Below the pieces are notes generated by a model. It saw only the letters and a list, made by a program, of their open reading frames with translations, was not told where the DNA came from and searched no databases. DNA of 21,538 bases from a virus (Duplodnaviria; Heunggongvirae; Uroviricota; Caudoviricetes), in the IMG/VR virus record IMGVR_UViG_2740892229_000015. One strand, given 5' to 3'. Of this stretch, positions 459 to 6,146 are shown piece after piece (position 1 is the first letter of the stretch; each line of letters opens with the position of its first letter). Position numbers and translations under genes: made by a program.

Positions 459-626
459 TCAAGCATTATGCAGGCTGTTTCTTTTTATCACCGGCCACAG
501 CAATACCACAATGCCGCAGACCAGCACCCCATCCGCCAGCACCGACATGATTCTGCTGGTGAAATCCACCATCACCACCAGAAACAGCAGGAGTGCAGCC
601 ACAGCCAGGCGCAGTTTTACCGTCAC
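459..626 (-). CDS. Small hydrophobic protein (55 aa, GTG start; VTVKLRLAVAALLLFLVVMVDFTSRIMSVLADGVLVCGIVVLLWPVIKRNSLHNA), predicted two-helix membrane peptide
   Basis: Hand translation of the minus strand; GGAG 8 nt upstream of GTG; GTG overlaps the TGA stop of the upstream TerB-like gene (GTGA coupling); below the 60-aa ORF-track cutoff. Confidence 0.35.
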   Translation of the reverse strand: MTVKLRLAVAALLLFLVVMVDFTSRIMSVLADGVLVCGIVVLLWPVIKRNSLHNA

Positions 627-1054
627 AGGTGATTCTCCAGACGAAGACCCAGAACACCGGCAATCTCTTCCAGCACCTTGCGCTCTTCCGGCTCAATTTC
701 GCCGTCTGCCTCCGCAATGGCCACCGCCACATCCAGCACATCTTCCGCTTCACGCGTATCGTGTTTCACATCCTCAATCTCGCGTAACGCGGCACGACGA
801 CCAATTTTAAAATTGGTATCCAGCTGACCGATAATAGTTGCGCTAATCGCATTAATTTCCGAGGTAAACGCAGACAACGCAGGCTGATTACGTAAGACCT
901 GTTCGATCTTCGCTTTCTCGGATGCCTCGCATTCACCATCTGCATAGGCCACCAGGTATGCAGCGTTAATCACCGCCTGTGCCAGATCGCGTTTCTCAAA
1001 CTTTTTAATTTCCGCTGCCGCTCTGCGGGTTTTCTTTTTGAAGATTCCAAACAT
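623..1054 (-). CDS. TerB-family (tellurite-resistance TerB-like) protein, 143 aa; start taken at MFGIFKKK rather than the longest ORF start at 1126
   Basis: ORF track 623..1126; AAGGAA RBS 7 nt upstream of the internal ATG at 1054; C-terminal VAIAEADGEIEPEERKVLEEIAGVLGL resembles the TerB signature (recalled from E. coli TerB). Confidence 0.6.
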   Translation of the reverse strand: MFGIFKKKTRRAAAEIKKFEKRDLAQAVINAAYLVAYADGECEASEKAKIEQVLRNQPALSAFTSEINAISATIIGQLDTNFKIGRRAALREIEDVKHDTREAEDVLDVAVAIAEADGEIEPEERKVLEEIAGVLGLRLENHL

Positions 1055-1186
1055 CGTGACGTTCCTTTGGGTGGGTGAGCCAACGCCCGGGAGCGATCTG
1101 CCCACAGAGAAAGTCACACTGACCACTCCGTAAGCTCACCCCCGAAAGGCTCTGTGGTTGATATGCGCCGGGCGTGGCGCAGATAC

Positions 1187-1210
1187 AAAAAAGGCCCGCC
1201 GAAGCGAGCC
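1187..1210 (-). terminator. Candidate Rho-independent terminator just 3' of tRNA-Arg(TCT): hairpin ggcucgc-uucg-gcgggcc followed by UUUUUU on the minus strand
   Basis: Read directly from the sequence. Confidence 0.4.
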
Positions 1211-1223
1211 TGGAAAATAAGTG

Positions 1224-1300
1224 TGGCGCGTTGTAGTGGAGTCGAACCACTGACCGATTGCTTAGAAGGCAATTGCTCTGTCCGGCTGAGCTAACAACGC
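1224..1300 (-). tRNA. tRNA-Arg, anticodon TCT (77 nt, CCA encoded), phage-type rare-codon tRNA
   Basis: Hand-folded cloverleaf: acceptor GCGTTGT/ACAACGC, anticodon loop CTTCTAA, T-loop TTCGACT, 3' GCCA. Confidence 0.8.
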
Positions 1301-1825: not shown

Positions 1826-2380
1826 TCAAAAAGCAATAACTTTTTTCTCTATACCAAAAGCCATAACCATTGGTTTGTACAAAATAAATTCTGCCACCTT
1901 TAGCCAATGCTCAATGCGTCTTTCACAGGTTCTTAAACTCCATTCCGGATGTGCATCATTCAGCAGTTCAGCCATTTTGCGCTTAGTCATCCCCCGCCCC
2001 ACATAACGCTGACTCAGAACATTGAGCAGCCCGGGATAACCTGCCAGTACTTCACCAATAACCCTGTCGATTATTAACGCCTCTGAATCGGTACAATGCA
2101 CCAGCCAGCTTTTTTGCTTGCCGTTGATCATATCCCGCAAAAAAGCCTCAAGTTTAGGTTTGTCCAGACCTGCTTTTTTCATCCTCCGGAGCGCCTCGTT
2201 AATTGCCGTTTTTGTCAGCTTTTTAGAGGTCAGCAACTGGTTGAACATATTTCCCGTCTTACCGCCGCCAATATACGACCAGCGCCCCCACATACGTAGT
2301 TTCCCCTGAATCCAGACACTTTCCAGCGTGGTGAGACGAAGGTGCTCTCCGCTTTTTCCTGTGTTCGTTGGGTAAATCAT
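1826..2380 (-). CDS. Lambdoid late-gene antiterminator Q-like protein (184 aa from MIYPTNTGK)
   Basis: ORF track 1826..2500; internal ATG at 2380 has a GGAGAAAGGA RBS and overlaps the upstream stop (ATGA); position between nin-region genes and the tRNA cluster. Confidence 0.55.
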   Translation of the reverse strand: MIYPTNTGKSGEHLRLTTLESVWIQGKLRMWGRWSYIGGGKTGNMFNQLLTSKKLTKTAINEALRRMKKAGLDKPKLEAFLRDMINGKQKSWLVHCTDSEALIIDRVIGEVLAGYPGLLNVLSQRYVGRGMTKRKMAELLNDAHPEWSLRTCERRIEHWLKVAEFILYKPMVMAFGIEKKVIAF

Positions 2381-2667
2381 AAATAACCGTCCTTTCTCCA
2401 GATCTCTTGTGTGCGAAAAACACCTTCTGCATGCATCAGGCGCAATTCTTCTTTGGTGTAATCGCTGGTTTTTACTCTCCCGTCGATTAAATCGTGGCAT
2501 GAGTTACAGGCAATCGCTGCCTGCATATCGTGTGGCTTTATCGCTGTTCCGCACGTTCCCGCCAGCCTGTAATGCGCCAGCACAGAGGTTTCGGGATTGT
2601 GATTGCAGTAGCCAGGGATTCTGATCTGGCATATCTGGCCTTTAGCCGCTTTACGTAAATTCACCAT
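2377..2667 (-). CDS. YbcO-like (DUF1364) Cys-rich lambdoid nin-region protein, putative nuclease, 96 aa
   Basis: ORF track; cysteine pattern CQIRIPGYC...ACNSCHD recalled as YbcO-like; start overlaps the upstream stop (TAATG). Confidence 0.65.
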   Translation of the reverse strand: MVNLRKAAKGQICQIRIPGYCNHNPETSVLAHYRLAGTCGTAIKPHDMQAAIACNSCHDLIDGRVKTSDYTKEELRLMHAEGVFRTQEIWRKDGYL

Positions 2668-5157: not shown

Positions 5158-6146
5158 TGTCTGGACAATACATTCCCTATCACTTAAGGCATAATAAGTC
5201 TATTGATAGAGAGATTTTTCTCGAAAGCCTAAACCTCTTAAGCAAAAGACTAAATATTCAAGAATATACATATATAGGTTTTGGTGGTCCGATGCTTGAA
5301 GATTTTAGAATCATGCATAATCGTATCGCTCTTTCTGATATGATTTCTCTCGAAGAACAAGAGTCTACTCACATCAGACAAAAATATAATTTGCCTTATA
5401 ATTGTATTGATTGTAAGCTAATATCAGCTCATGACTTTATTCTTGATTATAGTTTTTCTAAACCATCAATAACATGGTTAGACTATGCCTCCCCGAAAAA
5501 AATACAAACGGATCTAGATGATATACACTTACTAAGTACTAAAGTAAGCTCTTTTGATATTTTGAAGGTCACCTTCCCCATAAATCCTAGTTCTTATTAC
5601 CAACGTAGAGTTGGAGAAAGTTTAGATATTTTTAAAGAAGCTTTTATTAATTCATTAAAATCATTGCTTGGGAAAAAGTATCTTGATTTTAATCTTCAGA
5701 TATCAAATGCAGATCTTTCAGATCGTAAGATTAAAGCTCTTTTAATACGAATTATTACAAACGCTTTTAGATCAGCAATAGAACGTGGTCTTTCAGGACG
5801 TAAGGATAAGATTCAGTATTACCCATTATCCTTAAATCAATATAATGATGGCAGTCATACCATGTTGACAATATCAGGTTTTTTCTCCTCAGAACAAGAA
5901 TATATAGAGTTATCTAAGGCATGCGACCTTTCTAACTGGCAATTTTATTCAACAAATTGGGAAGACGTGCAAGAAATAGCAATACCAACACTAACAATTA
6001 AAGAAAAGATAAATTTAGATAGTAAACTGCCTGATAAAGAAGCATATCAGGCAGCCGCTGAAGAGTTCTCTTTAAACGAAAATGAACGGGATAACTATTA
6101 TAAATACTATAGGTTATACCCTAACTTCCAAAGAATTATGGTTTAA
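5157..6146 (+). CDS. Protein of unknown function (329 aa), translationally coupled to the GHKL ATPase; possible effector of the cassette
   Basis: ORF track 5154..6146; ATG at 5157 overlaps the ATPase TGA (TGATG); GAGGTG RBS; no motif I can recognise. Confidence 0.75.
   Translation: MSGQYIPYHLRHNKSIDREIFLESLNLLSKRLNIQEYTYIGFGGPMLEDFRIMHNRIALSDMISLEEQESTHIRQKYNLPYNCIDCKLISAHDFILDYSFSKPSITWLDYASPKKIQTDLDDIHLLSTKVSSFDILKVTFPINPSSYYQRRVGESLDIFKEAFINSLKSLLGKKYLDFNLQISNADLSDRKIKALLIRIITNAFRSAIERGLSGRKDKIQYYPLSLNQYNDGSHTMLTISGFFSSEQEYIELSKACDLSNWQFYSTNWEDVQEIAIPTLTIKEKINLDSKLPDKEAYQAAAEEFSLNENERDNYYKYYRLYPNFQRIMV

Follow-up and report, generated by a model that had tools for sequence, protein, structure and literature searches.

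The 21,538-nucleotide (nt) virus record IMGVR_UViG_2740892229_000015 of IMG/VR, referred to here in its full length as the window, carries two small overlapping genes that are almost certainly the tciA-tciB accessory cassette of a lambdoid prophage, homologous to the genes of those names in phage P1. All window features described below lie on the minus strand. The first gene, tciA (623..1054, ATG at 1054), encodes a 143-amino acid (aa) cytoplasmic protein with a TerB domain, and the second, tciB (459..626), a 55-aa peptide of the DUF3927 family with a GTG start and two predicted hydrophobic helices. Ahead of tciA lie a structured 5' leader of about 125 nt (1049..1180), delimited by a covariance model, conservation and covariation, then an intrinsic-terminator-like hairpin with a T run (AGGCTCGCTTCGGCGGGCCT TTTTT, 1186..1211) and a tRNA-Arg(tct) gene (1224..1300); all five features are found in a single N-free piece, 426-1394. 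We identify the pair as tciA-tciB because both proteins match the corresponding Pfam and PHROG families, resemble their P1 counterparts with the same adjacency, and are annotated as such in RefSeq.

The original prediction had read a TerB-family protein at 623-1054, and comparison with hidden Markov models bears this out: TciA matches Pfam TerB (PF05099) with E=2.9e-16 and 60.2 bits, against a cut-off of 24.4, residues 26-138 aligning to positions 2-109 of the 118 in the profile. It also falls in phrog_632, "tellurite resistance", of the moron category (E=1.7e-69), and it is related in sequence to the solved Klebsiella KP-TerB (PDB 2JXU; E=4.4e-8, residues 14-137). TciA contains two ADGxxxxxE motifs, and their residues D39/E46 and D117/E124 do not vary across 7 phage lineages. 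Its N-terminal tip, MFGIFKKK, is basic and hydrophobic, and hydropathy analysis detects no hydrophobic segment in the protein. A longer TerB reading that starts at a GTG at 1126 (167 aa) was rejected, because related sequences have indels that interrupt this frame ahead of the ATG.

The second open reading frame (ORF) had been described as a small hydrophobic two-helix frame whose GTG overlaps the TerB stop (GTGA) and which has a GGAG of its own, and it reads exactly so. At the coupling junction (623..638), GGAG (638..635) is followed by an 8-nt spacer and the tciB GTG (626..624), which overlaps the tciA TGA (625..623) in a 4-nt overlap. The GTG, the GGAG, the overlap and the reading frame are kept in nearly all of 29 distinct tciB alleles from related loci; dN/dS (the ratio of nonsynonymous to synonymous substitution rates) between alleles is mostly 0.1-0.5, which indicates purifying selection; the peptide is 59% identical to that of phage Pollock though synonymous sites are saturated; and tciB is retained after TerB in 79 of 80 IMG/VR loci. 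On comparative sequence grounds, the small ORF is a gene. TciB matches Pfam DUF3927 (PF13064; E=4.3e-17, 62.3 bits, cut-off 25) and phrog_1470, "TciB-like", likewise of the moron category (E=4e-30). The peptide is hydrophobic nearly from end to end by hydropathy and the family shares the motif +L..(hydrophobic)..VDFTS+hhS..ADG..(hydrophobic)..WPhhK; an exhaustive profile search yields 62 family representatives, nearly all of 50-65 aa. The sole long match, P0130, was considered as a possible fusion and set aside: by eye, its N-terminus is unrelated and histidine-phosphatase-like, it includes a low-complexity stretch, and it is probably a gene-calling artefact. Across 80 IMG/VR loci (L008-L087), TciA is 97-100% identical and TciB 52-100%, its C-terminal third being the most variable, a contrast that points to a recombination boundary within tciB or immediately behind it. 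In one complete genome, no small hydrophobic ORF that could be a tciC-like third gene lies between tciB and nanS-p.

A translationally coupled TerB and membrane-peptide pair thus exists as predicted, but the coupling is not newly seen: this is the tciA-tciB pair of P1, already named and catalogued, with Pfam and PHROG families of its own. Of 5426 complete E. coli genomes, 1157 have the pair in their RefSeq annotation, with a median of 4 copies per genome, and the annotation of phage JLK-2012 labels the genes tciA and tciB. The names come from P1, where tciA, tciB and tciC abut (NC_005856 70233-70929); the window TciA is 42% identical to its P1 counterpart and the window TciB about 53-58% over the aligned part, with the same adjacency. 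Around half of one P1-like subgroup is without the tci operon, that is, has lost it (PMC9603915). Database names ('tellurite resistance', and 'TciB-like inhibition of cell division or resistance to colicin', as found in PHROGs, RefSeq and the P1 annotation) and the homology to TerB of ter operons would suggest lysogenic conversion, the pair giving its host resistance to tellurite and/or to pore-forming colicins. We regard this as very improbable: the names were given by homology only, none of terZ, terA, terC, terD and terE is annotated within 9 kb of the pair in complete genomes, and a terB on its own was considered an improbable source of tellurite resistance by those who described such phage genomes (PMC8421299, PMC3728262). 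Papers on phage genomes with a lone terB call its role unknown (PMC8421299, PMC3728262, PMC7371120).

The uncatalogued item at the locus is the leader, which lies outside the coordinates given in the original prediction and matters more than the gene pair. From its 5' end, it comprises an upstream hairpin, P0 (GCGCC-ACGCCC-GGCGC, 1180..1165); the 5' strand of P1, CCACAGAG (1157..1150); an anti-Shine-Dalgarno CCTTT (1149..1145) that pairs with AAAGG (1068..1064); a helix of GGGTGAGC (1141..1134) with GCTCACCC (1080..1073), which builds the long hairpin; and within it an inner hairpin, S1, of GGAGTGGTC (1129..1121) with GATCGCTCC (1098..1090). The S1 apical loop, CTCTGTGG (1109..1102), is complementary to P1 in the 5' flank, and the Shine-Dalgarno sequence (SD) AAAGGA (1068..1063) stands ahead of the tciA ATG at 1054. 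About 110 nt before this ATG are conserved better than coding sequence between E. coli prophages and the jumbo phages pSal-SNUABM-04 and Asesino, with the invariant blocks AGAGCCTTTCGGGGGTG and TGGCTCACCCACC and, one variable base on, an invariant AAAGGAA that is the ribosome-binding site. Indels among relatives mean that the leader is non-coding. A covariance model built from tciA leaders finds the window copy at 1049-1171 (minus strand; 130 bits, E=8e-30) as its only match in the window, and the leader pattern occurs there once against 0 expected. Rfam 15 holds no family that matches window positions 1055-1180 at E<=10.

The leader precedes a tciA homologue in 211 of 246 loci, in 54 versions. 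Both tciA allele families have it, and their proteins are only about 42% identical to each other; P1, Pollock and the Pseudomonas and Vibrio phages lack it before tciA or TerB. Of 11 leader matches from a genome scan at species level, 10 are real, and each of the 10 immediately precedes a tciA ORF; they come from Franconibacter, Pantoea, Pseudescherichia and Citrobacter. Three loci (L034-L036) have the leader about 2.5-3.9 kb upstream of tciA rather than abutting it, and six loci, with upstream sequence of the L144 type, have unrelated DNA directly upstream of tciA. Two kinds of allele variation were also observed: a G run (CGGGGGTG, at the equivalent of about 1139-1143) ranges from 4 to 11 G between otherwise identical loci (L133, L104, L159 and other IMG/VR loci), which could be homopolymer sequencing error or real length variation, and several alleles have T1138 changed to G, which would place a G-A mismatch in the SD-sequestering helix.

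The fold is supported by how the copies vary. For leaders of the tciA class, 89.4% of cells in the alignment are paired, against at most 54% with the partners slid, and 16 cells with double changes are reached by 0 of 500 shuffles; for the short class, with the loop-to-flank pairing included, 90.8% are paired against 28-50% when slid, 7 pairs and 23 cells change on both sides, and the covariation score is again reached by 0 of 500 shuffles. The SD-sequestering CCUUU:AAAGG and the adjacent helix are paired in 92% of cells in the tciA class and 99.6% in the short class. RNAalifold, given 18 copies of the short class, arrives independently at P0 and at a stem that pairs CUUU with AAAG and continues into S1, and S1 column 53:92 of that alignment shows GC, CG and UG. 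Diverged copies carry compensatory changes, as in CCACAGAG/CTCTGTGG against CCGTAGAG/CTCTACGG, and diverged paralogous leaders replace GGTGA/TCACC with GATGA/TCATC and GAGCC/GGCTC with GAACC/GGTTC. The P0 stems differ between copies while the loop is kept, and the 5' flank is a better fit to the apical loop of the same copy than to the loops of others, with a longest Watson-Crick run of 5.19 against 3.74 (0 of 2000 permutations as high); a cruder self-versus-non-self test of this pseudoknot, with fixed 8-mers and G-U pairs allowed, does not discriminate (5.8 vs 5.25). We did not retain as the main fold a minimum-free-energy type structure, Fold II, with GAGCC and GGCTC joined in a helix and the SD left unpaired, since its inner helix is poorly kept (77% paired); it is a possible alternative state only, and predicted thermodynamic ensembles across leader types do alternate SD-free and SD-paired folds. 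An all-pairs column covariation scan was too confounded by relatedness to be used.

Covariation support for the leader is moderate in our judgement, and two points temper it: neither the number of pairs nor that of pair types exceeds the shuffles in the tciA class, and the covariation comes from few independent lineages, so that the shuffle controls overstate significance. The structure itself is supported, and we infer from the modelled fold a role in gating tciA translation: the base of the long hairpin would pair CCUUU with the SD AAAGG, and tciB would then be made by translational coupling to tciA. The gate might open by RNase III processing or through a phage or host factor; the former is suggested by resemblance to the logic of the T7 and lambda N leaders.

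The leader is not confined to tciA. The tciA-leader covariance model also finds weaker second copies in the same prophages, ahead of other genes, and all its matches at E<0.1 are on the coding strand and keep a constant spacing between SD and start codon. A looser leader pattern is present at at least 120 viral loci, where the ORF that follows is tciA at 47, a 328-aa protein without a Pfam match at 30, a GT2 glycosyltransferase at 10, proteins of the P22_AR_N, ANT/KilAC and Rha types in several clusters of 2-8, a 111-aa ORF at 4 and a 77-aa ORF at 3 (neither with a family assignment), the rest being singletons. Phage phi80 has one leader between an annotated terminator and rha and a second before ORF x171.28 (locus L380, 915-1040 and 2509-2617), HK620 has one between Rz and hkbK, a KilA-N gene (L379 1509-1634), and others are found in mEp043, mEp213, mEp237, mEp390, HK639 and HK106, with a further copy at L001 3799-3929 (minus strand). 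At E<=1, the phi80 and HK620 copies have no counterpart in Rfam, and literature searches on a TerB riboswitch and on rha/IHF regulation yielded nothing relevant. Almost always in the copies inspected, the order is the same: a terminator, P0 with its variable stem and conserved loop (CGC(C/A)C), an A-rich linker, the P1 5' strand, [C/U]CUUUCAG, GUGAGCC, S1, the conserved 3' bulge G(U/G)GCG, GGCUCAC, CUAAAAGGAA and the start codon. The annotated start of phi80 rha (L380 999-1553) at 999 falls inside the leader match at 915-1040; from the SD-to-ATG spacing of the leader, the true start may be near 1035 and the annotated N-terminus is possibly too long.

We give an even chance to the proposal that these copies form an undescribed family of structured phage RNA leaders, acting as a common post-transcriptional gate for unrelated accessory genes in lambdoid late regions, those of prophages in Shiga toxin-producing E. 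coli among them, and in jumbo phages. Alternatively, the element might not be a functional RNA but a conserved junction, a linker at which lambdoid phages recombine cargo and which carries a terminator and a ribosome-binding site. In favour of a linker, the element stands ahead of many unrelated cargo genes and of both tciA allele families; much of the leader never varies, and hybrid leaders exist that join the 5' half of one type to the 3' half of another, giving A-C mismatches, so that recombination does shuffle the element. We nevertheless hold this explanation to be rather unlikely, given that compensatory changes keep the helices in diverged copies, that the 5' flank best fits its own apical loop, that the P0 stems vary around a kept loop, and that the E<0.1 matches are all on the coding strand at a fixed distance from the start codon. 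The two explanations are not mutually exclusive, and leader conservation could partly come from recombination linkers between mosaic modules.

The surroundings of the cassette must be read with the nature of the record in mind. The window consists of short contigs joined by runs of 10 N, which are genuine, and no complete genome covers at least 80% of it in one place. Near-duplicate pieces flank the N runs (92-181 against 192-272, with three differences, and 386-415 against 432-461, within the regions 1-458 and 1301-1524), and a tRNA 3' fragment is present three times among the N-separated pieces of the same regions. Near-duplicate neighbours together with the absence of a genome covering 80% make the pattern expected of collapsed multi-copy prophage regions, and the window does not represent a single continuous locus but strings together alternative alleles of multi-copy prophages. 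The original prediction had left the linkage across the N runs to be confirmed, and it holds in complete genomes: three are 100% identical to the window across 781 nt, and complete E. coli chromosomes have, gap-free, Q (DUF1133), tRNAs, the terminator, the leader, tciA (TerB), tciB (DUF3927), two terminators, a nanS-p-type SASA esterase (DUF6645), a holin and a lysozyme. This gene order also confirms that the pair is cargo in a lambdoid late region, downstream of Q and the tRNAs. In the window, the Q-like antiterminator ORF (1826..2500; Pfam DUF1133, E=1.7e-105; Phage_antitermQ, E=7.3e-8) likewise places the cassette in a late operon. tRNA-Arg(tct), found by ARAGORN and matching the Rfam tRNA family with 67 bits, shares the N-free piece with the pair; ARAGORN also finds a tRNA-Arg(tcg) (1525-1601) and a CAT-anticodon tRNA (1611-1686), which it calls Met and whose homologue is tRNA-Ile in RefSeq. 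N runs part these two from tRNA-Arg(tct) here, whereas they are adjacent in complete genomes. Insertions recur in the region: IS421 splits the tRNA cluster in one locus (L004 6968-8079) and IS600 the nanS-p-like gene in another (L001 5834-6990).

How would the cassette be expressed? The terminator before the leader is also present in the complete genome, and the same element stands ahead of every leader copy examined; after tciB, L004 has two terminator-like hairpins (5866..5849 and 5749..5728). A crude consensus scan found no sigma-70-like promoter on the coding strand, which makes Q read-through the most likely source of transcripts. In Stx phages, stx (the Shiga toxin genes) occupies the slot between the tRNAs and nanS-p/holin and is transcribed by Q-antiterminated read-through during lytic growth. 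By analogy, tciA-tciB would be transcribed from Q-antiterminated read-through in lytic growth, and we consider this late-operon expression logic reasonably probable.

TerB homologues occur in 131 phage records, from Vibrio, Escherichia, Erwinia, Pseudomonas, Klebsiella and Salmonella phages, and TciB is detected in 34, all but one Shigella phage being named for Escherichia/Enterobacteria, Salmonella or Klebsiella. As an adjacent pair, they are found in four kinds of phage: lambdoid prophages, the phage-plasmids P1, P7 and SJ46, virulent N4-like phages and jumbo phages of Erwinia and Salmonella. In the N4-like Pollock the pair is gp27/gp28, in the N4-like FSL SP-058/076 the TerB and TciB matches are about 60 nt apart, and in the jumbo phages the TerB partner is a more diverged two-helix peptide that retains the WPVIK end. 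The pair was also observed beside or inside tRNA clusters in three unrelated phage types, an association noted without a statistical test: it lies 170 nt from tRNA-Arg in lambdoid prophages, or from tRNA-Gly in JLK-2012 (L002 5747-5980), between trnT and trnI in P1 (L005 1616-3276), and 137 nt after tRNA-Cys in jumbo phages (Asesino, L007 612-3638; L088 1256-4801). In the N4-like Pollock and the Pseudomonas phages, tciA-tciB or TerB is not beside tRNA genes. Either a common hot spot for accessory genes or a cassette that travels could lie behind this adjacency.

The original prediction proposed a small stress or abortive-infection-like module, for which no direct support emerged. In its fullest form, this idea has TciA sense stress on the membrane or from infection, as a TerB-type protein, and TciB act as a small depolarising membrane effector, the two together protecting the lysogen population from other phages. 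It draws on the presence of TerB in validated defence systems, namely in Shango SngA, in Bunzi BnzA and in Dionysus, the last of which joins a TerB-like protein to a membrane protein that forms pores (bioRxiv 10.1101/2025.09.30.679545), on ter operons having been linked to phage inhibition in the literature, and on the occurrence of the pair in a prophage cargo slot, in multiple copies in Shiga toxin-producing E. coli. We consider it improbable all the same. In PADLOC-DB 2.0, TciA matches only PDC-S48, with E=0.0035 over 35 residues, and TciB has no match, so that there is no meaningful hit to a catalogued defence system; strictly virulent N4-like and jumbo phages carry the pair; bracketed by terminators and without a promoter-like site, it is probably silent in the lysogen; and TciB has conserved polar residues, not a holin- or toxin-like pattern, in a family of about 62 clusters that are all short peptides. 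The pair might instead act against host defence, a TciB-tethered phage TerB mimicking or titrating the TerB sensors of the host (the ter operon Phi phenotype, Shango, Bunzi, Dionysus). TerB domains do belong to several host defence systems, and standalone TerB is widespread in the virulent and temperate phages of many hosts (the 131 records above), often among early or replication genes. Such a decoy is quite unlikely in our estimate, being purely inferential, with no detectable similarity between TciA and the TerB models of PADLOC defence systems, and the late operon in which the lambdoid pair lies is late for anti-defence.

Because strictly virulent phages carry the pair, a benefit to the phage rather than host suicide is indicated: most likely, tciA-tciB helps the phage during infection, for example through stability of the membrane and of the proton-motive force or through exclusion of superinfecting phages or pore-forming colicins, and does not kill the host. 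TerB proteins are described as amphitropic (bioRxiv 10.1101/2025.09.30.679545). TciA may dock on the inner membrane via its basic and hydrophobic N-terminus and/or TciB, and the two may assemble into a small TerB-membrane complex, comparable to the one that TerB and TerC are proposed to make in ter operons, with the effect of conditioning or protecting the infected cell's inner membrane; we put forward this membrane-conditioning function only tentatively. As a whole, the best explanation, which we hold with slightly better than even confidence, is a late-operon tciA-tciB cassette, leader-gated and encoding a TerB-membrane complex that benefits the phage.

A number of observations pull the other way. 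Physical interaction between TciA and TciB is deduced from adjacency and coupling only, and no TerB-DUF3927 fusion protein is found among the 62 family representatives. Each partner also occurs without the other: Pseudomonas and Vibrio phages have TerB without TciB, and phages 434 and 2B8 have TciB without TerB, after an unrelated protein with four transmembrane (TM) segments. All three P1 tci genes are nonessential by CRISPR interference (PMC10695390), the P1 tci name was assigned by homology alone (P1 annotation), and we found no experimental test of tciA or tciB function in the literature. As for expression, the promoter scan was a crude consensus test, which a weak or non-sigma-70 promoter active in the lysogen might escape. 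In phage 434 (L003 4034-4192), TciB follows a 247-aa four-TM protein without a Pfam family, and another small membrane ORF comes next; we considered whether the 247-aa partner is a hidden TerB, but it has no Pfam match and no BLASTP similarity. TciB may be a generic small partner for different membrane-associated proteins.

The analysis thus names the pair correctly as tciA-tciB, locates it exactly within the late operon, and gives evidence of a module spread across phages and not of a defence peculiar to prophages. TerB is among the commonest "resistance" annotations in phage genomes, and its association with a conserved 55-aa peptide makes a concrete two-component system. Should the regulatory proposal for the leader be true, lambdoid prophages of pathogenic E. 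coli would have a shared RNA control for accessory genes expressed on induction, one that takes in the long-known and poorly understood rha and kilA-type genes, and a single RNA device would coordinate expression of TerB/TciB with that of Rha-type genes.

Among known systems, the closest is the tciA-tciB-tciC operon of P1 (annotation of Lobocka et al., 2004), which has the same TerB protein TciA followed by a DUF3927 TciB, on the same strand and abutting or overlapping, with tRNA genes adjoining the operon. There are nevertheless a number of differences: (i), P1 has tciC, a 35-aa peptide with a single TM segment, and no such ORF follows the lambdoid tciB; (ii), the P1 copy lies in the C1-controlled ban region and not in a Q-dependent late operon; (iii), P1 is without the structured leader. 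TciA shares with the TerB of terZABCDE operons (KP-TerB, 2JXU) the same domain over its whole length and the paired acidic ADG...E motifs, but TerB is here phage-borne and alone with a 55-aa peptide. The TerB defence systems (Dionysus DinA/DinB/DinC, Shango SngA, Bunzi BnzA) likewise link a TerB-like protein genetically to one or more membrane proteins, and TerB is proposed to survey the membrane in them (bioRxiv 10.1101/2025.09.30.679545). The partner of tciA is, in contrast, a 55-aa hairpin peptide and not a four-TM pore-forming toxin, a helicase or an ATPase, and tciA-tciB is carried by phages themselves, virulent ones included.

The position of the cassette is that of stx and other morons in the slot running from Q and the tRNAs through the cargo to nanS-p and lysis: it lies downstream of Q and of ileZ/argN/argO-type tRNAs and upstream of a SASA esterase and a holin, with expression presumably dependent on Q read-through. 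It differs in that the cargo is a TerB/peptide pair and not a toxin, bracketed by terminators and with a structured leader in front. Measured against the moron as defined by Hendrix and Juhala, the downstream terminators are present, and the crude consensus scan shows no sigma-70-like site upstream. Phage leaders that are processed or that sequester an SD are not unprecedented, as the T7 R1.1-type RNase III signals and the lambda N leader illustrate. The tciA leader resembles these in being a long imperfect hairpin with an asymmetric internal loop, placed between genes of a polycistronic transcript and with the ribosome-binding site occluded by the lower stem; this is resemblance only, with no sequence relationship, and the tciA leader has in addition the pairing of its loop with the 5' flank and an upstream hairpin with a conserved loop.

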